Shown here piece after piece: positions 4,630 to 33,565 of a DNA stretch of 42,768 nt. The translations under genes and the position numbers were made by a program. Numbering within the stretch: position 1 is the stretch's first letter; every line of letters starts with the position of its first letter. A model generated the notes under the pieces. It was not told where the DNA came from, did no database searches, and was given only the letters and a program-made list of their open reading frames with translations. The stretch comes from Nitrososphaerales archaeon (GTDB lineage: Archaea; Thermoproteota; Nitrososphaeria; Nitrososphaerales; UBA213): contig JAWCSA010000003.1 in the NCBI GenBank assembly GCA_038868975.1, positions 1 to 42,768 of the forward strand, read 5' to 3'.

Positions 4630-4719
4630 ATTCGCATAAGAATGGGTTTTGTCCAAATATTACCTTTGTGGAAACTTTATCAATCTTGTAAAAAGCGCAT
4701 AACATACAAATACTAAATT

Positions 4720-7619: not shown

Positions 7620-9044
7620 ATGAGAATGAAATTATTATTTTCATTTGCTCTTGCAGTATTAATTGGTATGAATGTTAACGTTAACCAAATGTTACCAAAT
7701 GCGTACGCACATGGTCTCGGTACCGAACAGACATTGCCTATGAATGTTGGTGATCGCATAGCTTTTCTGAGGGTTTCTATAGCACCAGAACTAAAAAAAT
7801 TTAATGAATTGAAAGATATTACCTTAACGATAGAAATGGTAGATGCGTTGTCAGGCCGGAATATACGGGGCGCTGGATATCATATCACAGTAGAAAAGTT
7901 TGCGAACGGCATTGTATTGCTAGAGGAGACTTTTCATGCTGCCAAGGATAACGAGAAGCTGGTAGTAAGATTCAAAACTACAGAAGGTGGAGATGTCTTC
8001 GTAAGAGGACAGAAAGTGGATGATACCCTAGGATATGTAGCAACTGACACACTTTCTGTCGAGGGCCCTGTATTTATGGAAGCAGGACTTTATCGATTTG
8101 CAATGGAAGTTGTTGTTATGGATGGCCAAATCGTGCCTATAGGCAAGAGGGCCATATTCGAGGCCTTTATCACTCTTGCCGAGAGCAGAACATTTGCAGT
8201 AACGTATAATGCTAAACAATATGCTTTAGAAACAATCTCCTATTTTGACAACATCGTAGATTTTGAATTCGAACCTAGCAGTATGAGTATAAAGATGATA
8301 ATGCCATTCAATTGGAACAGAAGTTTTGTCGAAAATGTTCCGTTATTACATGCTGAGATATTCATCCCCAAGGAGTTTTCAGAGCTGGCACAAAAGGAGT
8401 TTGTTGGACTAATTAACGGCGTAGAGGAACCAATATTTGTAGATAGATCACCACCTGACGAGGTAGTCATCCATTACACTACACCTAACAGGAGATTGCT
8501 ATCAATATCAGATATGATCATGCAAGAAGGGATGCCTACAAGCCTAGTTGAATTTGGCTTGGTTGTTAAAGATGGTACTATAGGCGATGGCGAAAATGGT
8601 TCTATACCTCCTCCTGTGATGAATGGATGGTCACCTCCAATGGAAACGCGCACTAGTGGTGGTAGCATTCTAGTACAAGTAGAGTGGTCACCGCTTATCA
8701 TTGATATTGATAAAGATACCACATTTAGATTAACATTTAGGGATCCATTGACAAAGGAAGTGATCCAGAACGTTGTTTATGACGTAATGTTGTATGATCC
8801 AAATGGTGAACATGTTGACAGATCGCATAGGTCAAGGCAGACAGCTGAAACTCAAACTTACAGATTTGCTGAACCGGGTAAATTTACATTACTTCTCACA
8901 AACGTGAACAACACCGGCGAAAGGGCGGGGTTTTCACTTTCAGTCGTGCCGGAGTTTCCATTGGGCGTTATGTTCATTATGGGTTCAATGCTTGCCATAA
9001 TGTTTGTAATATTAAGGGTTAGAGGCTTTCATGGAAAACCTTAG
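7620..9044 (+). CDS. PEF-CTERM surface protein, paralogue C of the 458-474 aa family
   Basis: Signal peptide ends NAYA/HGLGTEQ. Blocks EAGLYRFAMEVVVM, MIMPFNWNRSF and LHAEIFIPKEF. Ends VVPEFPLGVMFIMGSMLAIMFVILRVRGFHGKP. Confidence 0.85.
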   Translation: MRMKLLFSFALAVLIGMNVNVNQMLPNAYAHGLGTEQTLPMNVGDRIAFLRVSIAPELKKFNELKDITLTIEMVDALSGRNIRGAGYHITVEKFANGIVLLEETFHAAKDNEKLVVRFKTTEGGDVFVRGQKVDDTLGYVATDTLSVEGPVFMEAGLYRFAMEVVVMDGQIVPIGKRAIFEAFITLAESRTFAVTYNAKQYALETISYFDNIVDFEFEPSSMSIKMIMPFNWNRSFVENVPLLHAEIFIPKEFSELAQKEFVGLINGVEEPIFVDRSPPDEVVIHYTTPNRRLLSISDMIMQEGMPTSLVEFGLVVKDGTIGDGENGSIPPPVMNGWSPPMETRTSGGSILVQVEWSPLIIDIDKDTTFRLTFRDPLTKEVIQNVVYDVMLYDPNGEHVDRSHRSRQTAETQTYRFAEPGKFTLLLTNVNNTGERAGFSLSVVPEFPLGVMFIMGSMLAIMFVILRVRGFHGKP

Positions 9045-14271: not shown

Positions 14272-15591
14272 TCAATACACTACAAATTGCAATTCAACCG
14301 GGCTTTCAGTAAGTGGTTCTGGCTTTGGAGAATTATTCCAGATAAAGATCTGTATATAATAGATGTCAGGTTCATTGGGAATCCAAGATTGGGTGAATGT
14401 TGATGACCCGTTTACCAAGTCGTATGTTACATAAGAGAGCTCTGCGGTATGACCGGCAGCATTTTTTATCTGGATTATATAGGTTGCCTCCACAGGAGAA
14501 GGAAGGTTGCTTAGCAATGATGAGTGTATGAAAACCTGTTCCTTTGCACCTACGGAAGTAACCTCTGAACCTGCAGCATCAACAAGCAAGGTCTTGAGAA
14601 TCTTTACACTTGATTCCTTGCTGCCATTGGAAATATTAAAAGAAGATTGGCTGAGACCTGCTTCACTTACTTTATCTTGATCACCCACATAAAATACAGC
14701 GTCAGCAATTATACCATTGTAAAATGCCATCACCTTGAAGGAACCATTTGCTTCTGTAGGCATCTTCATCCTAGAGCTAAATGTTCCATCTGAGCTTATG
14801 GATATGTTATCTGTGTATAATTCGTCATTCTTACCAATAACTTCTACCTTAACTTCTTTCTGAAGCACTACAGGGCCAACCTTTCCATAAATCTTTATCA
14901 TATCACCAATGTTGTAATGCCTTTTATCTGTTCGTACTGTAAGATGGCTTTCAAAGAAACCTAGGTAAAGCCAGTTTAGCGCTTCGATATCACGCTGTGA
15001 TATTGCTTGCTCCTGATCATCATCCGCCGGATATGCGTACATAATGTCTATCGGTTCTTCGCCATTGTCATCAAAGTGTCCGAGGTTTAATGCATGGCCA
15101 AATTCATGCAATGCTGCCCTATAAAACAACTCTTTGGAGAGAGGCTGGGTACTCTCCGTTGTGACACGCTTCCCCTTCACCACTTCTGAGAACACGATCT
15201 TTGAGTGAGTTGGTAAGATGATATCTGCTTTGGTTATGGATGACTGATCCCAGTATTCTATATAGGTATAACCGGAATATCCATGACCTGTTACTTTGGA
15301 ATGTGTGCTAACTATATGCACGTTGATATGGCAGCCGGAACCATTAGAGATTGTGTAGCTAAAATGATCCCATCTTGACTTCCATTCCTCAACAGCTTTT
15401 ACAAAGAGATCTTCATACTCTTTACTTGCTGTGCTTGAAAGACAGATCATGAAGTTCAGATTGTTTTGCCATTTGGCAGGAACGGCGTAGCTAAAGTTTG
15501 TTGAATATGCATATGAAGTGGCAGGAAGCAATAATACTGAAATGGCTAACAAAATTATCCCATATTGTAGAAAGGGTTGCTGGCGCCTCAC
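14272..15591 (-). CDS. Secreted metzincin (matrixin/M10-like) zinc metalloprotease with C-terminal Ig-like domains
   Basis: GTG start and a signal peptide ending PATSYA. Zinc site AALHEFGHALNLGHFDD (HExxHxxxxxH spacing) with a downstream DIMYAY Met-turn. The C-terminal half is beta-rich (HYNIGDMIKIYGKV...GSFKVMAFYNG). Confidence 0.85.
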   Translation of the reverse strand: MRRQQPFLQYGIILLAISVLLLPATSYAYSTNFSYAVPAKWQNNLNFMICLSSTASKEYEDLFVKAVEEWKSRWDHFSYTISNGSGCHINVHIVSTHSKVTGHGYSGYTYIEYWDQSSITKADIILPTHSKIVFSEVVKGKRVTTESTQPLSKELFYRAALHEFGHALNLGHFDDNGEEPIDIMYAYPADDDQEQAISQRDIEALNWLYLGFFESHLTVRTDKRHYNIGDMIKIYGKVGPVVLQKEVKVEVIGKNDELYTDNISISSDGTFSSRMKMPTEANGSFKVMAFYNGIIADAVFYVGDQDKVSEAGLSQSSFNISNGSKESSVKILKTLLVDAAGSEVTSVGAKEQVFIHSSLLSNLPSPVEATYIIQIKNAAGHTAELSYVTYDLVNGSSTFTQSWIPNEPDIYYIQIFIWNNSPKPEPLTESPVELQFVVY

Positions 15592-18010: not shown

Positions 18011-19858
18011 TTACAAACTAACCTGTGTAAATAGACATGACTCTACTCTAATTGTACTTGTTACTGAAGTAGCAGTAAAGTTTGGCGCCGCTTTCAGATG
18101 TGTAACACACTTCAAGCTTTGCACGAACCTCTTGGTTATTGGGTTGTTTGGAAGTTTATCAAGATCTTCGTATATACCTGTGAATACAACTACATCTACC
18201 TTCTTCAAGAATTTCGATAAACTTTGACTAGGGAAGCACAGAAACACTTCCTTCTGCGCCTCTATTGTCTTTGTAATGCTGCTCTTGCTCTTTGAGATAA
18301 CAGTGTTCATCTCCATCGGGTGTGTTATATCATTATTTTCTACACATGACTGCGTTACTATTGGCTCCTTTGAAGGTGTGCTCCTCTCACATCCTAGCAC
18401 TTTGCTATTATATAGTTTAAGGCATGTTATAACCTCAGCTTGCTTGCCAACCATCTTCTTTGTATCCATGTTCTGATATAGCTCAGCATATATGGTAACA
18501 TCTGCTATAACTGGCACATGTCCCTGATCTAAGAAGCAGTCATACACCTCCTTCTCCACATGCACGGTCTTAGCTATAGGAGTAGTATTCTTCATGCCAG
18601 ATACAGTGTTCATGTCTATAGGGTCCTCATGCAATGGCCTTAATGTACAGTCACCAAATGGTGGTAGCTCTGGAGGTGGTGGGGGTGGCTTTTCACGTAC
18701 TGTCACTGTTGCAGAGGCACGCTCATTTGGATCGTTGCCTGGAACATTTGGGTTTCCAGTATGAGAACCTCCTAGCACGGAACAGTTTCCAGTGAGACAT
18801 ATATCCGCCGTAGCAAACGCTGTATTTGTAAAGGTTCCTGTAGTTGTAAAGGTCTGGGTACATGTGAAACGAATACTCTGCCCTGGATGAAGTATACCGT
18901 CTGTGTCTACGGTACTGGAAGTCAGATCGAAGAATGCATCACCAATATTCAGTATAGGATCACCATCTCCAATGCCATTTCCATCTGCATCAAACGTTAC
19001 TGGAGAGCAGTCATCAGCATTTCCAGCTATGCCATCAAACCCTGTATCTGTAATAAAGACATTGGTTAATGGCACTTCACTTAAGTTAGTCTCCACATAA
19101 GTGTATGTGACTATTAATGGTACGGTTCCTGATGTTGGATTTGCTGTTTTTGTAAGTGTAGTACTCACAACGGGAAAAGTAACAAGGAATTCAGCGGTTC
19201 CAAGATAGCCCTGTGGCGACCCTGTGCCAGAGGTCTCTGTTCCACAGGAGACAAGCGCGTACTTACCTGGAGCAAATGTATTATCTGTTCTGTGACCTAT
19301 GACAGCGTTGGCAGAATTTACCTCATCCCAGTGATAAGGAATTGAACCAGCAACTGTAGCACCATTTATCTCGTCTATATGTATAGGAAACAATATTGGA
19401 TGTATATCTGGAGGATGATCTGCACCTGTTTGTTTCGCAGTAATGTCAGCTCCTATCCCAAAGGGTATGCGCAGTTTTCCATTGGGAGGACCGCCTGTAG
19501 CCGTATAACCTCTTATATCTCCTGGGTAATCACCTGCTCCAACCAGAACCCAGGCCCTCCCTCCTGGAGGGGCACCCGGCAGGTTGTGACCTGCAAATAG
19601 GTCTGGCCGACATCTAGTGGGGAGAAGCAAAGCGTTTGCAGGATCGTAGTAGACCCTTACCTCCGTCCCTGTATGAGTGAAACCTAGTATAGCTTCTATT
19701 TGCAAAACACGTGGTGCACCTGTAATATCACTAGCAGGGAAGACTACCTGCGTTGGCGTATTTTCAGCACTTGCATTCTGCAAAGGCATCCCTGTCAGCA
19801 ATGGCGCGAAAGCACTTAACAACAGAACATTTAGAAACAGAGCTGTAAATTTTCTCAT
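18011..19858 (-). CDS. Secreted multidomain protein: N-domain shared with 30602..31303, a DUF11/CARDB-like beta-sandwich, a Pro6 linker, and two tandem 4-Cys modules
   Basis: Signal peptide MRKFTALFLNVLLLSAFAPLLTG. KLRIPFGIGADIT and YALVSCGTETSG...LGTAEFLVTFPV match SIRIPFGTGGTFDIT and LYIFCTIGSEG...LGTLQVTAPV of the 258-aa ORF. The middle region has TLTKTANPTSGTVPLIVTYTYVETN...VFITD, then the linker KPPPPPPELPP. The C-terminal ~200 aa are homologous to 40084..40668. Confidence 0.85.
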   Translation of the reverse strand: MRKFTALFLNVLLLSAFAPLLTGMPLQNASAENTPTQVVFPASDITGAPRVLQIEAILGFTHTGTEVRVYYDPANALLLPTRCRPDLFAGHNLPGAPPGGRAWVLVGAGDYPGDIRGYTATGGPPNGKLRIPFGIGADITAKQTGADHPPDIHPILFPIHIDEINGATVAGSIPYHWDEVNSANAVIGHRTDNTFAPGKYALVSCGTETSGTGSPQGYLGTAEFLVTFPVVSTTLTKTANPTSGTVPLIVTYTYVETNLSEVPLTNVFITDTGFDGIAGNADDCSPVTFDADGNGIGDGDPILNIGDAFFDLTSSTVDTDGILHPGQSIRFTCTQTFTTTGTFTNTAFATADICLTGNCSVLGGSHTGNPNVPGNDPNERASATVTVREKPPPPPPELPPFGDCTLRPLHEDPIDMNTVSGMKNTTPIAKTVHVEKEVYDCFLDQGHVPVIADVTIYAELYQNMDTKKMVGKQAEVITCLKLYNSKVLGCERSTPSKEPIVTQSCVENNDITHPMEMNTVISKSKSSITKTIEAQKEVFLCFPSQSLSKFLKKVDVVVFTGIYEDLDKLPNNPITKRFVQSLKCVTHLKAAPNFTATSVTSTIRVESCLFTQVSL

Positions 19859-21213: not shown

Positions 21214-23073
21214 ATGTATGTGGGAAATATGGAGTTAAACAGGAACATCAAGGTTCTGGCGCTGCTGCTAGCTGTTGCATTGCTCTCAACTGCAACGATT
21301 GCGCCATTTGGGATGGCATTTGCTAATAATGATAAGCAAAAATATGTTCCAGGTGAACTGTTAATAAAATTCAACGAAGATTCAAAATCTATTAAGGAGC
21401 AGATACTAAAAAAGCATGGAGCAAAAATAGTTGATAGCATAGAGCAGATCGATGTTCAAGTGATAAAGGTACCAAGTCAAGCATTGGGGTCAGTAGAATC
21501 TGCACTTCGCAACAACAAGGCAGTAAAATACGTAGAGAAGAACTTCTTACTTGAACCGGCTGTCGTGCCCAACGATCCATATTATTATAGGCAGTGGCAC
21601 CTAAGCAAGATCGGGGCGCCAAGTGGTTGGGATATAGGTAAGGGCAGCGCAAACACTTCCGTAGCTATACTTGATACTGGGGTGGATCCATCGCATCCGG
21701 ATCTGAAAGACAAATTGCTAAATGGGTACAATTTCTATGATAACAACAGCAACTGGTCAGACGTTTGTGGGCATGGCACAGGCGTTGCTGGAACTGCAGC
21801 TGCTGTAACAAACAATGGCATAGGTGTGGCTGGCGTTGCATGGGAAAATAAGATCCTTCCAATACGCATAACAGATACCAACTGCTATGGCTATTATTCA
21901 ACAATGGCCAAAGGCATAGTGTTTGCAGCTGACAATGGTGCAAGGGTTGCAAACATTAGTTTCAGAATATTCAATGGAGACACGTTGACAGATGCTGCGA
22001 AGTATATGTATAACAAAGGCGGATGGGTCGTAGCTGCTGGTGGGAACACTGGAACGTATGAGAATTACAAGGATAACCCATACATAATATCTGTAAGTGC
22101 CACCGACTCTACTGACAATATAACCTCATTTTCATCATATGGACCTTACATAGACTTTGCAGCACCTGGTTCCAGCATATACACAACTAGCAACGGCGGT
22201 TCCTATGGCTACAAGAGCGGAACATCTTTCTCATCGCCAGTAACTGCTGGTCTGATTGCCTTGATGTTCTCGCAAAGTCCAGGCATGACATCAAATGATG
22301 TGTATGACATATTGAAGCGATCTGCAGTTGACCGTGGCACAGCAGGCTATGATAATTACTATGGCTGGGGAAGAATAGATGCCTACAACGCATTGAAACT
22401 TGCTAGTTCATACAATTTGCTACAGAACAACCATGACGTTTCAGTTACAAATGCGAGTGTGCAGGAATCTGCTATCCAAGGAGATGCTGTCACAATCAAT
22501 GTTAGCGTTGTGAACGAGGGTGCTGTAAGCGAAACATTTGATGTAAAGGTAACCGACCTTACCGATTCTGTATCTATAGGCATGAGGAGTGTAACGCTTA
22601 CCTCTGGTTCCTCAAGCACTGTTTCATTTACTTGGAACACGGAGGGGGCAACGTTGGGTACGCATACGCTGCAAGCAGAAGCAATTGCAGTTGCAGGCGA
22701 AACGGACTTTTCTGACAATGTCAAAAAGGCATCAATTAACATAAGTCAAGCATCTGACCTTCCCAAAGCGGTCAGCGTTAATTCCATCAGCTATTACAAG
22801 GAAGGGGGGCGACAAAATAGCTTGCATCTAAAAATAGTGGCATCATTAATCGATGATATGGGCAACGCAGTGCCCAGCGCAGTGGTTACGATCGATGTTT
22901 ACGTTAATAACGTATTATATACTACTGCAAGTGGCACAAGTGGTACTGATGGAAAGGTCGCATTCAAGTTGAATAGAGCGCCTGCTGGATGCTATAATAC
23001 TATAGTTACAAATGTGAAATCCTCAGGCTTGACATGGGATGGAAATACTCCCGCTAACGGCATCTGCAAGTGA
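21214..23073 (+). CDS. Secreted subtilisin-like serine protease (S8) with an I9-like propeptide and C-terminal CARDB/Ig-like domains
   Basis: The likely start is ATG 21229 (MELNRNIKVLALLL...). Catalytic triad motifs VAILDTGVD, HGTGVAGTAAA and GTSFSSPVTAG. The propeptide has PGELLIKFNED...IDVQVIKVP. The CARDB-like stretch reads GDAVTINVSVVNEGAVSETFDVKVTD. Confidence 0.92.
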   Translation: MYVGNMELNRNIKVLALLLAVALLSTATIAPFGMAFANNDKQKYVPGELLIKFNEDSKSIKEQILKKHGAKIVDSIEQIDVQVIKVPSQALGSVESALRNNKAVKYVEKNFLLEPAVVPNDPYYYRQWHLSKIGAPSGWDIGKGSANTSVAILDTGVDPSHPDLKDKLLNGYNFYDNNSNWSDVCGHGTGVAGTAAAVTNNGIGVAGVAWENKILPIRITDTNCYGYYSTMAKGIVFAADNGARVANISFRIFNGDTLTDAAKYMYNKGGWVVAAGGNTGTYENYKDNPYIISVSATDSTDNITSFSSYGPYIDFAAPGSSIYTTSNGGSYGYKSGTSFSSPVTAGLIALMFSQSPGMTSNDVYDILKRSAVDRGTAGYDNYYGWGRIDAYNALKLASSYNLLQNNHDVSVTNASVQESAIQGDAVTINVSVVNEGAVSETFDVKVTDLTDSVSIGMRSVTLTSGSSSTVSFTWNTEGATLGTHTLQAEAIAVAGETDFSDNVKKASINISQASDLPKAVSVNSISYYKEGGRQNSLHLKIVASLIDDMGNAVPSAVVTIDVYVNNVLYTTASGTSGTDGKVAFKLNRAPAGCYNTIVTNVKSSGLTWDGNTPANGICK

Positions 23074-23388: not shown

Positions 23389-23682
23389 TTATACTTCAAG
23401 TCACACATTCTTGCCTTTGCAACTAAATGTGGCTCAGAGATAAAACCTGATGCCTATATTCCAGAGCATGGCATGCTTGGGAAGAACCTGCTAGCAATGA
23501 TATCATCGCTATGGCATGTTAGGCTAACTGTAGCAAAGATACAATCGATGCTGAAAGCCATCTATGGATTAAGTTTATCAACAGCAACCATACAGAACGC
23601 ACTGTTCAACGTATCTTCTTCATTGCAGAGATTCGCTGATAGAGTAAGAAGCAATGTCAAAAGAGCAAGTATCTCTGAATAG
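23389..23682 (+). pseudogene. Transposase fragment (IS66-like by motif pattern; uncertain)
   Basis: The open frame ...KCGSEIKPDAYIPEHGMLGKNLLAMISSLWHVRLTVAKIQSMLKAIYGLSLSTATIQNAL...VKRASISE* has no plausible start. It resembles the central G..LlA....KY...lP..R....l...G..ls..T part of IS66-type transposases and stops inside the 39-bp repeat. Confidence 0.4.
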
Positions 23683-23695: not shown

Positions 23696-23817
23696 GAATA
23701 AACATTCAAGCATTCCTGCCCATCATGTATTATTGTAACACTGTGATTGCTCTTCTCCAATGCTATCTTGTAAAGCGAAGCAATATCTTCCTCGTCTTCT
23801 TCTACCAGTATGTTCAT
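23696..23817 (-). pseudogene. 5' fragment (~40 codons) of a response-regulator receiver gene, paralogous to 32951..33565
   Basis: MNILVEEDEEDIASLYKIALEKSNHSVTIIHDGQECLNVYS aligns with LRILIAEDDSAIAMQYKIALEARNHSVVVTADGEQCIKVYS. Homology ends exactly at the 39-bp repeat. Confidence 0.7.
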
Positions 23818-23855: not shown

Positions 23856-26546
23856 TCATCTGAGCTTGTTGTGATATCGCATAGCCACAACAAGTAGCAA
23901 AGATATGCCGGCAAACAACAAAGCAGGCGGCCCAAATTCTGGGATTATGTGTATTGATGCCGAATCGGATGTTATTGTATAGATTATCCATGCATCACTC
24001 TCATTATCAAGCCAGCTCATAGAAGGCAATATCTCACCTTTTGATAATATGGCTGGGTCGTTGATCAGATCATTGGAGATAACAAAGACCAGTTCCTCCT
24101 CTTTGGCTCCCTGCATTTCGACAAAGATTTCACCATCCTTTACGGTAGTTATGGTACTGTTGCTTGAGGATAACATAAATTGACTTCCAGCGAGTGTGTA
24201 GTAGTAAAGTGGCAAGTTTCTGCTTACATGCTTTGGAAGCCAGTACTGCTTCTCAATCTCCGATACATTTACCAAACTAAACTTCTTCCTTACAATTTCG
24301 ACCAAATCATTAATTGTGGAAACGTCCTCACTCTGATACCTCAAGTTATTACCATCTATCCTATAATACGATTGAGGGTATATCGCAACAACAGCAAAAC
24401 CATACTCCATAACAGAGTTATTTATATCATCAAAAACATCGTCTATCGGCAATATACTCCACGTTTCATCATCTGTGTTATAGATGCTTGTAGACGCGGT
24501 TACTGGAAAATGGAAAACTCGTTCGCCTGGGTGCAATGGATAGGGTGGCGCATCTGCGTATAAGGAACTGCTAAGATATGTGATGCCAATTTCTTTCATA
24601 GCAGCAATTGTCTCATCATTGAACCGATCATCCGGTGGCATGAACGTCCTCGTCTGTGCATTGAACATAGATTTTACTTTCTCCTTTGTTCTTGCGATTG
24701 AATCTCTCTGTTCTGAAAAGGTCATTGCAGTGTGATCATTATGCATCCATCCTCTGTTGGCGACCTCCACCAACCCAGTTGAAGTTGAATTTCTGATTAG
24801 CTGTATAATCTCATTATCATTCTCAAGGGAACCACCTATAACAGCCAATGTGAGCTTCGTGTCCTTATTGATGAAGGACTTGATTATGTCAATCTGCGCC
24901 TCCCTTGCATAGTAATCCTGAACATCGAGAAGCACAAACGTAACGCAGTTACAACTTGAGGGGGCACGCCTGAACGCGTCCGATAACTCAATACCTATTG
25001 TGTTTATGCCCTTCATCTCCTTGGCCAATAAATGTGTTAGATTGGCATCAAAAAATGTTTGAACCGCAAAATCATATCTTCCTACATAGGCAGGCATGGC
25101 TAAATTCACGTTAAATTCGCTGTATTCACCATCTTTCAGCAACGTATTATCGATTCGTTCCCACAGAAGTTCGCCATTGTTCCAGAGCGAAGCTCTTATG
25201 TAAAACTGCCACGGTAGCGTTCCGGTATTTGTTATAGTATAGGTAAGGGAAGCGTTTTCTCCTGTTCGCAACTCGTTCTCTGCAATTGAAAGAGTGATAT
25301 CCGCAGATACATTTCCCTTCACTTCAACCACCTCCCTCCATGGTAGCTGCCCTGTCACAGTACCATCATGTTCTATTACAGCATATCCATAATACATTCC
25401 CTCCTCTGTTGGCTCGACAAAGATCTTATGCTCGCTATACCCGCTTGTCAATTCAACAGTAAGCCTTTGAATAAGGTCATACGGTTCGATGCGATCCCTA
25501 TCGAGTATCAATGAAAACGTGACATTTTTTTCATTTGAATATGTGCTTGATATCCTAAATACCACTTCGGTGGCACTTCCAATAGGAATGATGTTGTTGG
25601 TGCTCTTCAACTCAACGATTGAAGGTTTGTTTCTTAATAGATCAATCTGCATTTGCTTATCCGTTAGCGTTATATCATGCATGAGCCACAGCTCCTCATC
25701 GTAAAGAAGGTTCTGCTCTATCCGGTATACCCTTACCATGTATTCGCCGACCTTTAGATCCGTAAAGTAGGCATCCCCTTTCCTGTTAAACGCGGCAGCT
25801 GCAACTTCCCTCTCACTGTTATCGTAGATTATTGCAGTGAACTTCCCTAGTTTCTCGCCTACCTTCTCACGTCCTTCATAGAGGGAAAAAACAAGCTGTT
25901 CCACCCTTGGAGGCCATGAGGTTACAACCTTAACCTCCTTTCGTGTCCCAGGTTCAAGCTTGATCTGCGAGTGCTCGTATGATAGTTTGTTATCAATGAA
26001 AATGGACGCAATATAGTACTCCTGCGAACCTGTTGACTGTAGCCAGAAGCGTGGTGTCGTGCCTTCCTTATCAGTAACCCCAGATTGAATAAGATTGTTC
26101 CTATACGATCTTATTTCCACATCTGCCCCTTCGATAGGTGTTACGCCATCAGAATAGAAAATATTCAATCTCATACCTCCCGGTGGTAGAATTTTTATCA
26201 CAAGTTTCTCTTCGATCTTACGGAGTTCAACAGCGTCAGAACCAGCAAACATGTCATTCACATAAACATCCACCCTGTACTTGTGATTTAACCGAAGTGA
26301 TGGAAACGTGTACGGATTCATTTCTGTACTTACCACCTGAGAAGGTTCTTCAACCGAATCTCTGTAAAGCATGAGAGTCATCTGCCAGGGGTTCACCCTA
26401 TCACCATTGGTGTAAAGCACCGTTACCTCGAGCGAACCGTGAGCTTGACCATAGGATTGGGTAGGAAAAGCTGCAATGATCAATAGCACAAGTATTGCAA
26501 ATCCCTTTGCAAAAAGAGCCCGTGCTAACCTTTTGTCAATGCTCAT
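23856..26546 (-). CDS. Giant surface-anchored polysaccharide deacetylase (CE4/NodB-like domain) with CarboxypepD_reg/CARDB-like beta-sandwich repeats and a PEFG-CTERM anchor
   Basis: The ORF is open to 26567 (TTG). ATG 26546 (MSIDKRLARALFAKGFAILVLLIIAAF) overlaps the GT2 stop by 11 nt. Deacetylase region: CNCVTFVLLDVQDYY...EVANRGWMHNDH...TRTFMPPDDRFNDETIAAMKEIGITYLSS. It ends IHIIPEFGPPALLFAGISLLLVVAMRYHNKLR. Confidence 0.8.
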   Translation of the reverse strand: MSIDKRLARALFAKGFAILVLLIIAAFPTQSYGQAHGSLEVTVLYTNGDRVNPWQMTLMLYRDSVEEPSQVVSTEMNPYTFPSLRLNHKYRVDVYVNDMFAGSDAVELRKIEEKLVIKILPPGGMRLNIFYSDGVTPIEGADVEIRSYRNNLIQSGVTDKEGTTPRFWLQSTGSQEYYIASIFIDNKLSYEHSQIKLEPGTRKEVKVVTSWPPRVEQLVFSLYEGREKVGEKLGKFTAIIYDNSEREVAAAAFNRKGDAYFTDLKVGEYMVRVYRIEQNLLYDEELWLMHDITLTDKQMQIDLLRNKPSIVELKSTNNIIPIGSATEVVFRISSTYSNEKNVTFSLILDRDRIEPYDLIQRLTVELTSGYSEHKIFVEPTEEGMYYGYAVIEHDGTVTGQLPWREVVEVKGNVSADITLSIAENELRTGENASLTYTITNTGTLPWQFYIRASLWNNGELLWERIDNTLLKDGEYSEFNVNLAMPAYVGRYDFAVQTFFDANLTHLLAKEMKGINTIGIELSDAFRRAPSSCNCVTFVLLDVQDYYAREAQIDIIKSFINKDTKLTLAVIGGSLENDNEIIQLIRNSTSTGLVEVANRGWMHNDHTAMTFSEQRDSIARTKEKVKSMFNAQTRTFMPPDDRFNDETIAAMKEIGITYLSSSLYADAPPYPLHPGERVFHFPVTASTSIYNTDDETWSILPIDDVFDDINNSVMEYGFAVVAIYPQSYYRIDGNNLRYQSEDVSTINDLVEIVRKKFSLVNVSEIEKQYWLPKHVSRNLPLYYYTLAGSQFMLSSSNSTITTVKDGEIFVEMQGAKEEELVFVISNDLINDPAILSKGEILPSMSWLDNESDAWIIYTITSDSASIHIIPEFGPPALLFAGISLLLVVAMRYHNKLR

Positions 26547-27882
26547 ATTCGATCTTTTCAGTACCAACCCACCTTACCCCCCTCCCAATATGTTTGGTCT
26601 TCTCCCAAAAGACGGGCTTGAATATCTCTTGATAAAATGCGCGCAGAGCTGCCAGAGGCATCATGATGTTGAGGTAGTAAATAATATGTAATGCATATCT
26701 TCTATCTAAAGAGATGCCCTCGAGCTGAGCACCTTTGAACCATACATAGTAGTATAACGCATTAAGAGTAGCGGGTATATAGATCCATACAGGTCCGGCC
26801 TCCGTCATTATACCGAAAGGGAGAAGACGGGATGCTTCCATGACCCAGTAAATTGTAAGAGCATATGCGACCCAGTTCATTATAACTATAAGAGGATTAA
26901 GCAGCATGAGAAGCACTGTAAATATCCGCACGAATCCTAGCCTTTTAATTGCGGCAGGGCTGAACAGGGCCAACAGATATTTCCATAAACTTTGCAGCCA
27001 TCCTCTGAACCACCTTGTTCTCTGCCTTAACCACGGCTCGAATGACACCGGTGCCTCTTCCGAGTGCCTTGCATCCAGTACTTCAATATTCCAACTTGCA
27101 ATCAATAACCTTATAGCAACCTCCGCATCTTCAGCTAGGTTTGTGGAGTCCCAACCCCCAACATTCTTCAATGCCTTTATTGTGAAATAGTTACCGGTGC
27201 CGCCGAGCGGCGCATAAAGCTTCAGCCTTGCCCTACCATTGAGCCAGATGCGAAACCAGGCAGCGAACTCCACTGCGAAAAGTTTAGTGAGCAAAGAATC
27301 GTTTTCATTGCTTATTCGGAGTATCACCTGAACTGCTTGGCAACCATGGTTCATTATTGCAGACGCTGCCTTCAGAAAAACATCCCTATCAGGGATATCC
27401 TCTACATCCAAGATTGCAACTATTTCTCCAGTGCAGAGGGCGAGCGCGTCGTTCAGAGCACTCGGCTTTGTAGGATAAAACTGCTTCCGAGCAAGCACCT
27501 TAACTATACTTGGATATTTCAACTGGTACCATAGAGCTATCCTCTCTCCTTCCGGATCATCCGTCACAACGATAACCTCCTTCTTTTCCTTTGGATAGAG
27601 GATATGTTCAACACATATCTCTATTGTCCTCCCCAGTATTGGTTCATTGCGAGCAGGTATTATTGCAGAGATCTTGGGATATTCCTTTAGAGAGATTGAA
27701 GGGTTTAATGGGGGTTTCAGTCCTGCACCCGTAATAATAACGTGATACACTCCCCAGATAATGTAGACCGCAGAGACGCCATAGAACAGGGAAGTCACAA
27801 ATGTTTTTGGTGAAATTATGCATAAGATAACTGCAGCTGTCAACAACAGAGAAAAAATAGTAACTCTAATGCGTATGGACAA
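26536..27882 (-). CDS. Processive family-2 glycosyltransferase (PgaC/IcaA/NodC/chitin- or cellulose-synthase-like membrane synthase)
   Basis: TTG start overlapping the upstream gene by 17 nt. Two N-terminal and about four C-terminal TM segments. Motifs ISAIIPARNE, VIVVTDDPEG, VAILDVEDIPDRD, GGTGNYF..GGWD..LAEDAEVAIRL and QRTRWFRGW (Q-x-x-R-W). Confidence 0.88.
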   Translation of the reverse strand: MSIRIRVTIFSLLLTAAVILCIISPKTFVTSLFYGVSAVYIIWGVYHVIITGAGLKPPLNPSISLKEYPKISAIIPARNEPILGRTIEICVEHILYPKEKKEVIVVTDDPEGERIALWYQLKYPSIVKVLARKQFYPTKPSALNDALALCTGEIVAILDVEDIPDRDVFLKAASAIMNHGCQAVQVILRISNENDSLLTKLFAVEFAAWFRIWLNGRARLKLYAPLGGTGNYFTIKALKNVGGWDSTNLAEDAEVAIRLLIASWNIEVLDARHSEEAPVSFEPWLRQRTRWFRGWLQSLWKYLLALFSPAAIKRLGFVRIFTVLLMLLNPLIVIMNWVAYALTIYWVMEASRLLPFGIMTEAGPVWIYIPATLNALYYYVWFKGAQLEGISLDRRYALHIIYYLNIMMPLAALRAFYQEIFKPVFWEKTKHIGRGVRWVGTEKIEYEH

Positions 27883-28819
27883 TCCTGAGTACCTCGCTTA
27901 CAACCAAATTTGGTATCTCTTGTTCGCCAATGGCGACCAGCAGTATAAACTTTTCAGGGTTAATCATGTCCTTCAGAACTGGCAGTATATCGTTTCTCAC
28001 AACCAGCAAAACTTTCGCATTATAGTCGGCATATCTCAGAATTGTCTGCAACAGCTCGAACTCTACTCCTGAACTGTCCACCACAAACTCCACTGCTATT
28101 GGCTGACTCCCATCCACAAGTAGCGGGATCATATGGGTTACACCGCTTGAGCCTTTTACACTTGCAAGTATAGTTGAACGAAGGTTGGAATCCTTCAACA
28201 TCTTCTGGATAGAGAGTAGTAGCTCCCCGATCCTTGCCAGTGTTGCAGTTTGCTTGCTGATTTTATAAGTATGGTATGATAAAAGCGAGACCTCATCAAG
28301 CTTGAAAATGTGGTTATTATCACAAACCATTCGAACCAATGGATACTGCGATATATTACCACAAGTTATACACCTGAACCCTAGCCCCGGTCTGCCATAA
28401 TCGATACCAACTCGTTTTAATTCCTTCTTGCAATTCGGACAGATATAGGTGCTCATCCTATCAGTTACGAACTCTTCTACAGGAGCCACGTGATTGCATT
28501 CGTAGTGTATAACAAGATCCGATTTGCTGATCCCTCTACCGTTGCAACTTGGACATATTATCTCCACATGCAGCTGCATACTGTTACACCGTGGGCATGA
28601 AGGAAAACTTACAGACCCATGCGTAACAAGAAAGCCCCCGTTTTCAATATCTTTTATCTTCTCTGCTGTAAGAAGAAGACCATCTACATCATACACAACA
28701 CCAAATCCTTGTTTATATCTTGGTTGCAGTATTATTTCAGGATCCTTCAAGTAAGTGGAAAGCAGAACAAAGAGTTTGGGTGCGGCTGTAAAGTAGCCAT
28801 CCTGCATCTCTTCCTTCAA
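27866..28819 (-). CDS. Cytoplasmic double zinc-ribbon protein of unknown function, first long gene of the GT2 operon
   Basis: Start is TTG 28819 or ATG 28807. Four CxxC pairs: CPRCNS...CPSCNG and CPNCKK...CITCGN. The C-terminal alpha/beta-like region has GSSGVTHMIPLLVDG...VEFVVDSSGVEFE...KVLLVVRND. Confidence 0.75.
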   Translation of the reverse strand: MKEEMQDGYFTAAPKLFVLLSTYLKDPEIILQPRYKQGFGVVYDVDGLLLTAEKIKDIENGGFLVTHGSVSFPSCPRCNSMQLHVEIICPSCNGRGISKSDLVIHYECNHVAPVEEFVTDRMSTYICPNCKKELKRVGIDYGRPGLGFRCITCGNISQYPLVRMVCDNNHIFKLDEVSLLSYHTYKISKQTATLARIGELLLSIQKMLKDSNLRSTILASVKGSSGVTHMIPLLVDGSQPIAVEFVVDSSGVEFELLQTILRYADYNAKVLLVVRNDILPVLKDMINPEKFILLVAIGEQEIPNLVVSEVLRIVHTH

Positions 28820-29493: not shown

Positions 29494-29895
29494 TTAACCA
29501 TGATACTTTCTGCATTCCTTCATAACCCAGTAAACTACCTTCAGCAGATTTGACGCAGCTACTGCTGCCTTCTGCTTTCTCTTCTTCCTTGCTATCTTGG
29601 CATAGAATTTTGAAACATTGCTATCTGGTGCAGTTCTGACATGAACATACATACATTCGATCATTATCCATCTAAGGTACTTGCTTCCCCTCGTCGTTAT
29701 CCTCCCATGATACGTCACCCCTCCAGATGAATGTGTTGAGGATACCAGTCCAGCGTAGGAGCATAGATGCGAGTCAGGGAACCTGTTCATGTTTCCAATC
29801 TGCTGCTATGAGCAATGCTGAATAGTATCCTATGCCATGTACGCTCATTAACAAACTGCAGTTCTCATCATTGGCAATATGCCTTATCCTTTCCG
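29494..29895 (-). mobile_element. IS110-family transposase remnant (C-terminal part only, with an internal frameshift)
   Basis: MNRFPDSHLCSYAGLVSSTHSSGGVTYHGRITTRGSKYLRWIMIECMYV... is the typical IS110 C-terminal domain. Upstream, a different frame reads ...RIRHIANDENCSLLMSVHGIGYYSALLIAAD. The N-terminal DEDD domain is absent. Confidence 0.8.
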
Positions 29896-30601: not shown

Positions 30602-31303
30602 CTATAGGTGATGTTTTCCTGTCATTATTGAACCAACAACAATGCTTACGATCGTTGCTATTATGAAGGGTAACATGAAGAATGAATTTGTAAAGACGCC
30701 TGCGATAAGCAATGCGGTAGCATCGATTGACAAAAGCTCCCCTCCAACAGGTACTGGGGCAGTTACCTGTAGCGTGCCTAATCCCAGGTAAGGAGTTATC
30801 CCTTCACTTCCAATAGTGCAGAATATGTAAAGACCCAATTCGTTAGTATTATCTGCAACGTTTGGTCCATCTATGATCACCCATGAGTAACCTCCTGTGC
30901 CTCCTGGGTTGACCGTAGCACCACCAAGCCTAGTGATATCAAATGTTCCTCCAGTTCCAAACGGTATTCTTATCGAACTGTTTGCTGGTAAACTATATGT
31001 TACCGTAGTACCAGATTTTCTAAGTTCCCATACAGTTGCTCCAGCTGGGGTGACAGCGGCGTTGCAAAATCCTACGTCACCAAAAGCCGCGTCAGGATCA
31101 TAAGCCCTAATGAAGGTTCCAGACGTTGTTCCGGAGAAATTGCTTGTTATCACAATTTCTGTTGAAGTGCCAGCACTTATGTTGTTCGGATCAGGTGTCA
31201 CACCAGGAGTGTTTGCAAAAACTGGAACGAATGAGCCTGCTAAAATAATTATTCCAAGAACTGCAGAAACTGGTATGGTTTGCATACTACTATCATTTGC
31301 CAT
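30602..31303 (-). CDS. Secreted protein sharing its domain with the N-terminus of 18011..19858 and ending in a GGELLSID+TM motif
   Basis: The ORF is open to 31378, but ATG 31303 gives the signal peptide MANDSSMQTIPVSAVLGIIILAGSFVPVFA. The C-terminus is PVPVGGELLSIDATALLIAGVFTNSFFMLPFIIATIVSIVVGSIMTGKHHL. Confidence 0.75.
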   Translation of the reverse strand: MANDSSMQTIPVSAVLGIIILAGSFVPVFANTPGVTPDPNNISAGTSTEIVITSNFSGTTSGTFIRAYDPDAAFGDVGFCNAAVTPAGATVWELRKSGTTVTYSLPANSSIRIPFGTGGTFDITRLGGATVNPGGTGGYSWVIIDGPNVADNTNELGLYIFCTIGSEGITPYLGLGTLQVTAPVPVGGELLSIDATALLIAGVFTNSFFMLPFIIATIVSIVVGSIMTGKHHL

Positions 31304-31642
31304 GTAATTCAATATCAAATATTCATGTGCAAATATACCCTTTATGCAGTAGCTGCTATTGATGACAAGATTCTGCATCGATTTTATTTGACTACAGCTC
31401 TAGAGCTCATAATGCAGAGTGGATAAGCACTCTAACAATTGCATGGGCTCCTTTCTAGAAATGATCTTCGCCATGTATCTATAATTTGGTATGAATAAGT
31501 TAACATTAATTGCACAATCTTGACTTCAGACCCTAATTGTTCCATGTGACATATACACTCAAACTCATCATGATTCTAGGCATTTGTAAGTTACATTAAA
31601 AACTGACAAATCCTGAATACATGCAAAAGTAAAGCAGTTACA

Positions 31643-32896
31643 GTGGTTCAGAGAAGCAGTACTGACTTAAAGGGATTGAGACCAGCCAACTATCGGGGAT
31701 TTTCTGGAGATAAGGCTATTGAACTAAGATACAAGGAGCTGTACGATGGATCTCCTGCTCTTTGCAGAACAATCAATACAGATGGCATCATCCTTGACTG
31801 CAATTACTCCTATGCAGAACACTTGGGGTACTCAAAGGAAGAGCTTATTGGAAGATCAATATTTGAAACCACTGCAGAGCAGAGCCTGAATGCCATGCGC
31901 GAATCATTTGAGGCGTGGAAGAAAACGGGGGTAGTTCTTGATAGAGAAGTTTGGTTGAAGAGAAAGGATGGAACAGTATTTCCATGCCTAATTAGTGCCA
32001 CCAATCTGTACGATGAAAACGGTGCGCTGATTGGAAGCAATACCGTGATCAAAGACATCTCAGAAATTTATAAAGTAAGAAAGGAGCTTGAAAAGGCAAA
32101 TGAGGAGCTAACAAGGCGTGTAAATGATGCCCTCCTATTCGAGCAGATGATAAAGTCACAGCACACAAGACTTAGGCAATTGGCAAAAGAGCTTGAAAAG
32201 GCAAATGAGGAACTGAAGCTCAAGGACAGGTTAAAAGACGAATTCATCTGCGTGGCGGCGCATGAGCTAAGGACTCCCATTCAACCTATTTTGGGATATG
32301 CGGAGCTTGCAACAAGAAAGGTGATCACCGAAGAGCAGGCGTGGAACGGCGTGATCCAGCACGCCCGCAGGCTGCAGTCTCTGGCAAATGACATTCTTGA
32401 TGTTAGTCGTATTGAGAGTGGTAACTTGAAGTACCTGATGGCCAAGGTTAGCATCAACAGCATGATTGAGCTAGTGGTGAATAACGCAAACGTGAACCTG
32501 CCATCTAATATCATAATATTTACTGACTTGGATCAGGACGTAGAGATTGAGGCAGACAGGGAACGTATCATTCAAGCTCTAACGAATATCATTGATAATG
32601 CCATAAAGTTCACGAAGGAGGGCAGCATTACCGTAAAGAGCCGTGTTTTCCCAGATGAAAACAGGGTAGAGATCTCGCTTCGGGATACTGGCTGTGGCAT
32701 TCCAGAAGAGATACTTCCTAACATCTTCAACAAGTTTGTAACGAAAGGTAATATAGATGCGAGGGTGCAGGGTTCAGGCTTGGGGCTATTCATATGCAAG
32801 GCAATAGTAGTTGCCCATGGAGGAGAAATTTTTGCCAGCAATAATCCTCATGGCGGTGCTACGTTCACAATCGTATTGCCGTTAAGTCGTAAATAA
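31643..32896 (+). CDS. Cytoplasmic PAS-domain sensor histidine kinase
   Basis: GTG start. PAS region: YKELYDGSPALCRTINTDGIILDCNYSYAEHLGYSKEELIGRSIFE. Coiled coil carries a duplicated ELEKANEEL. H-box AAHELRTPIQPILGY. ATPase motifs IIDNAIKFT, RDTGCGIPEE and GSGLGLFICKAIVVAHGG. Confidence 0.92.
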   Translation: MVQRSSTDLKGLRPANYRGFSGDKAIELRYKELYDGSPALCRTINTDGIILDCNYSYAEHLGYSKEELIGRSIFETTAEQSLNAMRESFEAWKKTGVVLDREVWLKRKDGTVFPCLISATNLYDENGALIGSNTVIKDISEIYKVRKELEKANEELTRRVNDALLFEQMIKSQHTRLRQLAKELEKANEELKLKDRLKDEFICVAAHELRTPIQPILGYAELATRKVITEEQAWNGVIQHARRLQSLANDILDVSRIESGNLKYLMAKVSINSMIELVVNNANVNLPSNIIIFTDLDQDVEIEADRERIIQALTNIIDNAIKFTKEGSITVKSRVFPDENRVEISLRDTGCGIPEEILPNIFNKFVTKGNIDARVQGSGLGLFICKAIVVAHGGEIFASNNPHGGATFTIVLPLSRK

Positions 32897-32950: not shown

Positions 32951-33565
32951 TTAAACACGTCTAACCGTATCCTCGATCCTGTCAAGGGCGTCGATCAAGT
33001 AATCCCTGCCCTTTTGAATTTTAACAAGAGCGTCATGCAGTGTTCTTATAGCTTCAGCATCAGGCCTGAAATCCTTAATTTCACGTATTAAAGCGTTGAT
33101 CCTTTCTATCTCTGCACCGGTCTTCTTATCCTCTAGGATGCCAACAAGCAGGAAGGGTCTGAAGGGCTTCTCAATAAATTCAACTATTTGTCTGAGCTTT
33201 TGCACTGACTCGATGAGAGTTTCCTTCACATATGCTGATGCGAATATTATTCTTTGATTGGGATTCATGGCCAGTATATGTTTTGCAGCCTCCATGCCGT
33301 CCATATTGGGCATCCTGTAGTCGAGAACGACAACATCAAACGGTGACCCTCCGCCTGCAGTTGCTCCTGTTCCTTTTAGCGCATTGCTATAGACCTTTAT
33401 GCACTGTTCACCATCAGCAGTAACTACAACGCTATGGTTCCTTGCTTCCAACGCAATCTTGTACTGCATTGCAATCGCGCTGTCATCTTCGGCTATCAAA
33501 ATACGCAAAGATTCATTCAATTCCTTATCATATTGATCTACCATAGGACTTTGCATGCTGCTCAT
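32951..33565 (-). CDS. Response regulator: receiver domain plus a helical C-terminal (HalX-like?) domain
   Basis: LRILIAEDDSAIAMQYKIAL..., the phospho-acceptor context FDVVVLDYRMPNMDGMEA, and IIFASAY. The ~70-aa helical tail shows no recognisable HTH. Confidence 0.88.
   Translation of the reverse strand: MSSMQSPMVDQYDKELNESLRILIAEDDSAIAMQYKIALEARNHSVVVTADGEQCIKVYSNALKGTGATAGGGSPFDVVVLDYRMPNMDGMEAAKHILAMNPNQRIIFASAYVKETLIESVQKLRQIVEFIEKPFRPFLLVGILEDKKTGAEIERINALIREIKDFRPDAEAIRTLHDALVKIQKGRDYLIDALDRIEDTVRRV

Follow-up and report, generated by a model that had tools for sequence, protein, structure and literature searches.

A TackOD1-family protein obligately paired with a predicted glycan synthase across Nitrososphaerota, and a surface protein with a degenerate CE4 fold added to the pair in one lineage

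Aggregation and biofilm formation are known from the ammonia-oxidizing archaea and their relatives, but to our knowledge neither a glycan synthase nor the control of such an enzyme has been characterized in these organisms. A locus of a Nitrososphaerales archaeon (assembly GCA_038868975.1, contig JAWCSA010000003.1) raises the question of what a candidate synthase makes, and which protein partners are really its own. The locus lies in the stretch that we analyzed, positions 1 to 42,768 of the contig (the window, 42,768 nt), and consists of three minus-strand genes: gene 1 for a cytoplasmic protein of the TackOD1 family, gene 2 for a membrane-embedded synthase of glycosyltransferase family 2 (GT2), and gene 3 for a secreted protein anchored at its C-terminus (Table 1). 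An earlier sequence-only reading had interpreted the three genes as a synthase-deacetylase operon of the Pga/Ica type. We asked whether the three genes are a conserved unit, and whether gene 3 codes for an active deacetylase.

The gene overlaps that the sequence-only reading had reported were borne out when the two junctions were read directly. The TAG stop codon of gene 1 (27868–27866) and the TTG start codon of gene 2 at 27882 yield an overlap of 17 nt, and a GAGG motif is located at 27895–27892, 10 nt upstream of the TTG. The TGA stop codon of gene 2 (26538–26536) and the ATG start codon of gene 3 at 26546 yield an overlap of 11 nt; for gene 3, a longer version with a TTG start at 26567 is also possible. 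In the NCBI gene call of three metagenome-assembled genomes (MAGs) with an identical locus, gene 2 begins 28 codons later. We accepted the longer open reading frame (ORF) because its first 28 or so residues are conserved in homologues at the protein level and because −17 nt is the commonest projected overlap elsewhere. The identical locus is also present in GCA_038868495.1, GCA_038869295.1 and GCA_038870035.1.

Two scans in opposite directions revealed how far the arrangement extends. A forward scan with TackOD1 peptide patterns, applied to one genome per species, yielded 29 loci from Nitrososphaera, Nitrosopumilales, Nitrosomirales, Caldarchaeales, Wolframiiraptor, Geocrenenecus and others. 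An adjacent GT2 orthologue (49–61% identical) was found at all 28 genome loci that offered room for it; the remaining locus, L035, was too short to be judged and was left out of this count. An apparent exception in a Centralia MAG named 'Crenarchaeota archaeon' (L028) was rejected, because a second TackOD1 copy lies directly upstream of the GT2 gene, so that the two copies (4511–5380 and 8001–8807) flank it (5398–6711). The reverse scan, in which metagenomes were searched with GT2 peptides as the only seed, yielded 80 loci; in all 63 of them that extend 700 nt or more upstream, TackOD1 directly precedes GT2. The stop and start codons overlap, or are separated by a gap of at most 20 nt, in 59 of 66 non-redundant loci, with −17 nt as the commonest projected value. 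Altogether, orthologues of gene 2 were found in 100 or more loci and are 44–62% identical, with one outlier at 36%. Genes 1 and 2 are thus a conserved, obligately linked unit across Nitrososphaerota, comprising both Thaumarchaeota and Aigarchaeota-type lineages.

No neighbour other than the pair itself is widely shared, as revealed by an all-against-all clustering of the ORFs of 115 loci in which genes for export, modification and PgaD-like proteins were sought. The recurrent neighbours, a P-type ATPase, a DUF998 protein and a GalE-like epimerase, are lineage-specific. In thermophilic (Caldarchaeales-type) lineages, the gene for the GalE-like NAD-dependent sugar epimerase is located upstream (15 loci) and that for the DUF998 membrane protein downstream (17 loci); this flank pattern occurs in the loci L004, L005, L023, L025–L027, L029, L032–L034, L058–L065, L074, L075 and L082. 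The GT2 of these lineages also has a C-terminal extension of about 60 aa.

Gene 3 is a lineage-specific addition to this module. A gene 3 homologue within 4–8 kb was found at none of the 109 other TackOD1-GT2 loci, and the complete trio was found only in three near-identical MAGs, in which gene 3 is identical. A synteny of all three genes in relatives, as expected for a Pga/Ica-like operon, is therefore not observed. Only 15 homologues of gene 3 were found, and those with a named source come from Nitrososphaerales or Nitrosopumilus.

Gene 1 is a clear member of the TackOD1 family: the Pfam model PF18551 matches residues 55–186 with 93.7 bits (cutoff 32). The sequence-only reading had described it as a double zinc-ribbon protein. 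Zinc binding is indeed predicted, but the ligand pattern indicates three sites and not two (C75/C78/C89/C92, H105/C108/C127/C130 and C150/C153/C166/H170), and the TackOD1 identity as well as the C-terminal domain had gone unnoticed. The ligand motifs (CPRC, CPSC, HYEC, CPNC and CITC, followed by C166 and H170) are present and conserved; the ligand residues are invariant in 25 orthologues, and the ligand cysteines and H105 are invariant in the paralogues, too. The motif KRVGIDYGRPGLGF at residues 135–148 occurs in its full form only in the GT2-linked orthologues, which are the top-scoring group of the family. The protein has no detectable hydrophobic or transmembrane segment, its AlphaFold model has a pLDDT of 83.9, and 30 full-length homologues were found in Nitrososphaerota/Aigarchaeota. 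A weak match to zf-UDP (E 0.086) is not significant.

The C-terminal domain of gene 1 has a restriction-endonuclease fold, with weak Foldseek matches to Bax1, AF1548, XisH, Can2 and R2 RLE (E ≥ 1e-3). Gene 1 itself does not match the Pfam model Mrr_cat, but the equivalent domain of TackOD1 paralogues does, and the domain of gene 1 is therefore regarded as Mrr_cat-derived. An alignment revealed no canonical PD-(D/E)xK catalytic set in gene 1 or its orthologues; L208 and D265 are the only invariant residues in the C-terminal half. Pfam recognized no helix-turn-helix (HTH) motif in gene 1. Judged by eye, the pattern of helices and strands in the N-terminal 60 residues of the family may represent a degenerate winged helix.

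An exhaustive profile search of representative proteins revealed 2,035 TackOD1 clusters (50% identity) at E ≤ 1e-3, far more than the 12 proteins listed in the portion of Galperin et al. (2018; PMC5847659) that defines the domain. About 27 clusters score at least 215 bits and form a tight group at the top; after a score gap, a very large family of paralogues of about 320 aa follows. The long relatives have the architectures receiver (REC)-TackOD1-Mrr_cat and TackOD1-Mrr_cat. TackOD1 followed by a C-terminal Mrr_cat domain is in fact the common arrangement in this family, often with REC at the beginning (P0088, P0144, P0145, P0166, P0167 and P0191). A search for REC fusions with the profile of the TackOD1 core retrieved only 14 short proteins, none of them with REC. 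In one case, P0152 (743 aa), TackOD1 is fused to the N-terminal and central domains of a UDP-glucose/GDP-mannose dehydrogenase, which is an independent hint that ties TackOD1 to nucleotide-sugar or polysaccharide metabolism.

According to the TackOD1 passages of Galperin et al. (2018; PMC5847659), TackOD1 serves archaeal response regulators as an output domain and occurs alone, as REC-TackOD1 and as REC-winged HTH-TackOD1; its function 'remains obscure', and its zinc cluster resembles a DNA-handling insert in PriA. According to the relevant passage of Makarova et al. (2016; PMC4858521), the family (arCOG06883) is found mostly in thaumarchaeal type IV pilus loci. Gene 1 has no REC domain, whereas REC fusions occur in its paralogues. 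However, in six loci of close relatives (L009, L013, L015, L042, L056 and L072) a response-regulator gene abuts the TackOD1-GT2 pair. It encodes a protein of about 300 aa with REC and a weakly NitrOD5-like C-terminus, and ends at the TackOD1 start or overlaps it. Together, the two genes of these relatives would amount to a split REC + TackOD1 regulator that is transcribed along with the synthase gene.

In the window, a remnant of such a regulator is present at the other end of the locus. The 40 N-terminal residues of a receiver are encoded 38 nt beyond the stop codon of gene 3, and in a tblastn comparison they are 47–50% identical to residues 1–40 of the REC proteins encoded immediately before TackOD1-GT2 in L013 and L015. 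The remnant has no Pfam match because it is too short. Mobile-element debris is located on both sides of the locus, IS66-like downstream of gene 3 and IS110 upstream of gene 1. Because of these insertion sequence (IS) remnants and because the REC gene is located upstream of TackOD1 in the relatives, the locus of the window has apparently been rearranged. A histidine kinase (Pfam PAS, HisKA and HATPase_c) and a receiver protein (Pfam Response_reg) are encoded about 3–5 kb upstream, and the receiver is 35–39% identical to the TackOD1-adjacent REC proteins of the relatives. This kinase and receiver are a candidate two-component pair for the control of genes 1 and 2, as far as can be inferred from their position and similarity.

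The sequence-only reading had assigned to gene 2 all hallmark motifs of a processive GT2 synthase as well as flanking transmembrane helices, and both features were corroborated. The motifs VVTDD (105–109), DVED (159–162), LGGTGNY (226–232), AEDAE (250–254) and QRTRW (287–291), and with them the catalytic residues D109, D159-x-E161-D162, E251-D252 and Q287-R-x-R-W291, do not vary among the 23 orthologues aligned. Hydropathy indicates two N-terminal and three to four C-terminal helices around the catalytic domain (about 5–23, 32–50, 317–335, 353–371 and 398–416). Pfam matches gene 2 with Glyco_trans_2_3 (83 bits) and Glyco_tranf_2_3 (75 bits). The best NCBIfam model is PgaC_IcaA (TIGR03937), but the score of 64.5 bits is so far below the curated equivalog cutoff of 422.3 bits that gene 2 cannot be regarded as a PgaC/IcaA orthologue.

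When the profile of the 23 orthologues was compared with solved structures, the best relatives were BcsA structures (E 6e-14, profile positions 54–365), and the match spans the entire catalytic domain and the helices after it. In the alignment, VVTDD, DVED, LGGTGNY, AEDAE and QRTRW are opposite the DDG, DxD, FFCGS, TED and QRGRW motifs of BcsA. For the crenarchaeal mannosyltransferase 6yv7, in contrast, the match is confined to the N-terminal half. The best full-domain matches are the polymerizing synthases BcsA, PgaC, EpsU, CelA and NodC. Therefore, gene 2 belongs with the membrane-embedded synthases of the BcsA/PgaC class and, as the sequence-only reading required, not with the dolichol-phosphate transferases. 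About 135 residues past QRTRW, the family has an invariant WEKTxH element, which is at about the position where we presume the FxVTxK gating loop of BcsA to be; this is a resemblance only. Enzymes of the BcsA/PgaC class polymerize a UDP-sugar and thread the growing chain through their own membrane pore. Gene 2 has the full motif set and the transmembrane architecture of these polymerizing, chain-exporting enzymes, and polymer synthesis and export are thus predicted functions.

Gene 3 has the makeup of a surface protein. It starts with a signal-like helix, followed by three Ig-like domains that are modeled with a pLDDT of mostly 84–94. In Foldseek, this region is closest to the TIE protein of B. 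anthracis, an adhesin (6fwv, E 6e-11), and to Gram-positive pilins (BcpA, PitA and SdrD). The CarboxypepD_reg- and CARDB-like repeats that had been proposed from the sequence could not be substantiated, since the Pfam matches to SpaA, CarboxypepD_reg and CARDB are all below threshold. At the C-terminus, the IPEFG motif, helix and basic tail can be read directly and have the pattern of a PEFG-CTERM-like sorting and anchoring signal, as proposed earlier; no NCBIfam model recognizes this tail at E ≤ 1. PEFG-CTERM proteins are known from Nitrosopumilus proteomes (PMC6593220).

The deacetylase assignment of gene 3 was right with respect to the fold, but not with respect to the motifs quoted for it. 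PF01522 scores 47.4 bits (cutoff 23.1), although across profile positions 24–123 only; the barrel at residues 534–767 is modeled with a pLDDT of about 85–94, and many carbohydrate esterase family 4 (CE4) structures are matched in Foldseek with target TM-scores of 0.56–0.78. Thus, the NodB (beta/alpha)-barrel fold is present. The best structural match is BA3943 (7bkf/6hm9/6hpa, E about 3e-10), a protein labeled 'CE4 family pseudoenzyme' at deposition.

For the mapping of the CE4 motifs (MT), we used the canonical definitions (PMC6115787) and took as an anchor the paralogue P0002, in which CVAfRLDD corresponds to CVAlTFDD of the solved enzymes 5lfz and 7y51, NHSWNH to HSxxH, and MHP to the LMHP of BA3943. 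At these motifs, gene 3 reads VLLD / NRGWMH / FMPP / IYP. In MT1, the catalytic base Asp is replaced by L540 (V538-L-L540-D541), while the metal-binding Asp is kept as D541; in MT2, the first metal-binding His is replaced by R598 (N-R598-G-W-M-H602) and the second is kept as H602. The Arg of MT3 (RxPY) is replaced by M636 (F-M636-P-P), with Ile at this position in most family members, and the catalytic acid of MT5, a His, is replaced by Y723 (A-I-Y723-P), where relatives have MMHP. An alternative MT1 at Q543-D544, suggested by the first phmmer alignment of gene 3 to 6hm9, was rejected in favor of RLDD = TFDD because this is how the paralogue with intact motifs lines up with two solved enzymes, a gap of 4 residues following the motif. 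An hhalign comparison of the CE4 family with a small CE4-like protein of the paralogue locus was uninformative (probability 1%), the reference lacking both MT2 histidines.

An alignment of 17 CE4 domains of the gene 3 family revealed two types. The intact-looking type has RLDD / (S/N)H(S/G)Wx(H/N) / MMHP, and the degenerate type has R[FML][AD][PN] / N[NR]GW / Q, E or N; the latter is found either alone or, in P0003–P0006, in second position next to a domain of the intact-looking type. The CE4 domain of gene 3 is thus a predicted pseudoenzyme that has lost the acid and base catalytic residues and one metal ligand, an outcome that the sequence-only reading itself had named as speaking against its proposal. 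At the cell surface, gene 3 probably does not deacetylate a glycan but binds or tethers it.

How might the parts act together? We lean slightly towards a signal-controlled glycan synthase module, which in this lineage is followed by a glycan-binding, membrane-anchored, adhesin-like protein. The core module would consist of the cytoplasmic TackOD1 protein with its degenerate restriction-endonuclease fold and, translationally coupled to it, the membrane-embedded GT2. As a subunit for regulation or assembly, the TackOD1 protein would act on the synthase from the cytoplasmic side and could place polymer synthesis under two-component control, a link suggested because TackOD1 is known as a response-regulator output and because a receiver gene is located immediately upstream in the coupled operon of relatives. 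Its role would be analogous to that of PilZ and cyclic di-GMP for BcsA, or to that of PgaD for PgaC. Gene 3 would be a later addition, a PEFG-anchored adhesin-like surface protein that holds the glycan. For the specific proposition that TackOD1 is a cytoplasmic subunit that couples two-component signaling to synthase activity, the considerations for and against are about evenly balanced. A bolder version is tentative at most: TackOD1 might be the archaeal counterpart of PilZ-type effectors, a phosphorylation-switched zinc module that docks on machines for surface structures (here a glycan synthase, elsewhere type IV pili) and gates them post-translationally. If true, post-translational control of exopolysaccharide (EPS) synthesis would be described in Archaea for the first time, and a protein family with over 1,500 clusters would be given a function.

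Several observations weigh against the synthase module as favored here. The proposed contact between TackOD1 and the synthase is deduced from adjacency and coupling, which would also fit a co-transcribed transcription factor, and the nuclease-type Mrr_cat domains of the paralogues, together with the resemblance to the PriA insert noted in the TackOD1 section of PMC5847659, point towards nucleic-acid binding. A polymer as the product of gene 2 is predicted, not proven, since lipid glycosyltransferases share the QxxRW type. The 11 nt overlap hints at co-expression of gene 3 with the GT2 gene, but the flanking IS remnants suggest a rearranged locus. Finally, residues 306–530 and 768–870 of gene 3 are poorly modeled by AlphaFold, and D541, H602 and H605 could still bind a metal and confer a non-canonical activity.

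The main rival explanation follows from the first of these points, namely that the TackOD1 protein is a DNA-binding transcription regulator that autoregulates the GT2 operon. The restriction-endonuclease fold of gene 1, the Mrr_cat matches of its paralogues, the REC-TackOD1-Mrr_cat architectures, which resemble those of DNA-targeting response regulators, the PriA-like zinc cluster (in the same part of PMC5847659), and the possible winged helix at the N-terminus would all fit such a regulator. However, Pfam recognizes no HTH in gene 1, the nuclease catalytic residues are not conserved, and the invariant KRVGIDYGRPGLGF sets the GT2-linked orthologues apart from the paralogues. Moreover, one-to-one adjacency throughout the phylum with overlapping stop and start codons is more typical of subunits in a fixed ratio, so that we regard a DNA-binding regulator as unlikely. 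A different doubt concerns the product of the GT2. Glycosyltransferases of the QxxRW-type GT2/GT21 families include lipid-modifying enzymes, and those that decorate lipids can carry the D, D, D, QxxRW signature. Gene 2 might thus decorate a lipid (for example, tetraether glycosyl headgroups) or another acceptor and not export a polysaccharide, and a single-copy pair kept in thermophilic and mesophilic lineages, like a housekeeping function of the envelope, a weak Glyco_transf_21 match (E 0.08), and the lack of conserved export or modification partners nearby would agree with this role. It is nevertheless improbable in view of the polymerizing enzymes among the best full-domain matches, of LGGTGNY as the FFCGS equivalent and the conserved WEKTxH element, and of the three to four transmembrane helices past the catalytic domain.

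The interpretation from which the analysis started, a working Pga/Ica-like or chitin-to-chitosan-like system in which the GT2 produces a polymer of N-acetylglucosamine (GlcNAc) that the anchored CE4 protein deacetylates outside the cell, is in our judgment improbable. It draws on PgaC_IcaA as the best NCBIfam match of the GT2, on the genuine CE4 fold encoded by a gene that overlaps the GT2 stop codon, on the potential metal site of D541, H602 and H605, and on a link of the gene 3 family to a GlcNAc-type gene cluster elsewhere, that of P0002 (described below). Yet the PgaC_IcaA score amounts to 64.5 bits where 422 are called for; the base Asp, the first metal His, the Arg of MT3 and the acid His are all replaced; the closest structure is itself a pseudoenzyme; and none of the 109 other TackOD1-GT2 loci has gene 3. 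The proposed Pga/Ica-like operon is therefore largely refuted for this locus, and we retain the signal-controlled synthase module as the favored reading.

A comparison with known systems places this module between several precedents. Gene 2 shares with BcsA the design of a membrane-embedded GT2 and the DD, DxD, FFCGS-like, TED and QxxRW motifs, and, just as BcsA has a fused PilZ domain, a cytoplasmic module of the signaling type is tied one-to-one to the synthase. In contrast to BcsA, the partner is a separate zinc-cluster TackOD1 protein with a restriction-endonuclease fold and not a PilZ domain, there is no BcsB-like partner, and the predicted input is two-component phosphorylation instead of cyclic di-GMP. 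PgaCD/PgaB and IcaAD/IcaB likewise have a small synthase (about 450 aa) with N- and C-terminal transmembrane helices, and a CE4-fold extracytoplasmic protein is encoded beside the synthase there as it is here. However, the window lacks a PgaD/IcaD-like small membrane protein, its CE4 domain lacks the catalytic Asp, the catalytic His and one metal His, and the conserved module does not include the CE4 protein. The zinc finger of the RING type at the N-terminus of plant CesA (zf-UDP) is also a Cys-rich cytosolic zinc module associated with a processive GT2. This is a functional analogy only, because TackOD1 is a protein of its own, its fold is arranged differently, and the match is not significant.

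Within its own family, gene 1 has the conserved CxxC/HxxC ligands of TackOD1, stand-alone forms of which are already listed in the section of PMC5847659 on this domain; the only context reported in the arCOG06883 passage of PMC4858521 is the type IV pilus loci, whereas here it is a GT2 synthase. Gene 3 is most similar in design to BA3943 and BA0330/BA0331 of B. anthracis, which also combine a NodB fold with substituted motifs, an extracytoplasmic location, additional beta-sandwich domains and an anchor in the envelope. In BA3943, MT1 deviates from TFDDG (PMC6115787), and BA0330/BA0331 have no deacetylase activity and stabilize the wall (PMC4505593). Gene 3 differs in that it is archaeal, about 900 aa long, anchored by a C-terminal signal of the PEFG type, equipped with a stalk resembling pilins and adhesins, and substituted at other residues.

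The sequence-only reading had not recognized an archaeal version with a giant deacetylase tethered to the envelope and a zinc-ribbon partner as described before. The general idea is not new, because the passage of PMC11561398 that cites Kerou 2016 already mentions, at the level of annotation, exported polysaccharide deacetylases and polymerizing glycosyltransferases in EPS clusters of Nitrososphaera, which are up-regulated on surfaces. The obligate pairing of TackOD1 with a synthase, which had been missed, and the REC-TackOD1-GT2 operon appear to be undescribed in the literature searched. The passages on TackOD1 in PMC5847659 and PMC4858521 mention neither the pairing nor the Mrr_cat-derived C-terminal domain, and the search returned no further paper that mentions TackOD1 or PF18551. 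The GT2 is thus the first functional context for TackOD1, and a synthase paired throughout a phylum with an 'obscure' output domain of two-component systems is a concrete link between archaeal signaling and a cell-surface polymer. Gene 3 adds an archaeal case in which a deacetylase fold has been re-used as a probable glycan-binding surface protein.

A second locus in GCA_038870035.1, one of the MAGs that carry the trio, is a better candidate for a chitin-like or poly-N-acetylglucosamine-like polymer than that of the window. It encodes P0002 (972 aa), which is 40% identical to gene 3 (locus L001, 4313–7319 and 7784–10702), keeps the CE4 motifs RLDD / NHSWNH / MHP, and ends with VPEFN followed by a transmembrane helix. 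Its gene is divergent from genes for a nucleotide-sugar dehydrogenase, a small CE4-like protein, a GT2 of 467 aa, GlmS and an acetyltransferase. This GT2 is PgaC/NodC-like, with 147 bits for PgaC_IcaA, 117 bits for NodC and Pfam matches to chitin synthase. In the small Polysacc_deac_1 protein (246 aa, L001 5719–6459, minus strand), the DD of MT1 is kept (SVVDD) and both MT2 histidines are gone (GSQTYNY), so that this protein may also be non-canonical.

Table 1. Positions of the three genes, their domains and neighbouring features in the window.
Feature	Positions	Strand	Description
Gene 1 (TackOD1 protein)	27866–28819	minus	317 aa, cytoplasmic, partner of gene 2
Gene 1, TackOD1 zinc-ribbon core	28262–28657	minus	residues 55–186, PF18551
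Gene 1, C-terminal alpha/beta domain	27869–28252	minus	residues ~190–317, restriction-endonuclease fold
Gene 2 (membrane-embedded GT2 synthase, BcsA/PgaC/NodC class)	26536–27882	minus	448 aa, TTG start
Gene 3 (secreted, C-terminally anchored protein)	23856–26546	minus	896 aa from ATG
Gene 3, three Ig-like (prealbumin/SpaA-like) beta-sandwich domains	25632–26447	minus	residues 34–305, adhesin-stalk-like
Gene 3, CE4/NodB-fold domain	24246–24956	minus	residues 531–767, predicted pseudoenzyme
Gene 3, IPEFG + transmembrane helix + basic tail	23859–23951	minus	residues 866–896 (IPEFG 868–872)
IS66-like transposase fragment	23473–23682	plus	truncates response-regulator remnant
Response-regulator receiver remnant	23698–23817	minus	40 aa N-terminal, 38 nt past gene 3 stop, truncated beside IS66-like remnant
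IS110-family transposase, C-terminal fragment	29494–29790	minus	upstream of gene 1
Gly/Thr-rich protein	30602–31378	minus	258 aa, hydrophobic N- and C-terminal segments, no family match
PAS histidine kinase	31643–32896	plus	Pfam PAS, HisKA, HATPase_c
Receiver protein	32951–33565	minus	204 aa, Pfam Response_reg

Additional genes for surface proteins are located around the locus. The Gly/Thr-rich protein, whose gene separates the TackOD1 operon from that of the PAS kinase, is possibly a surface protein, too. Secreted or surface proteins are also encoded at 14272–15591 (minus strand), 18011–19858 (minus strand) and 21214–23073 (plus strand), and comprise a matrixin-like M10 metalloprotease, a protein with DUF7507 repeats, and a subtilase with a fervidolysin-like prodomain and CARDB; an M10 peptidase is also present in the paralogue locus (L001 713–1327). 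In addition, the window contains copper-related genes that are typical of ammonia oxidizers, at 278–1120, 4720–7575 and 10117–12507 (all plus strand), which encode a plastocyanin-like cupredoxin, a CopC-CopD fusion of 951 aa with a beta-propeller of the Vgb_lyase/SGL type, and a second propeller protein of 796 aa.

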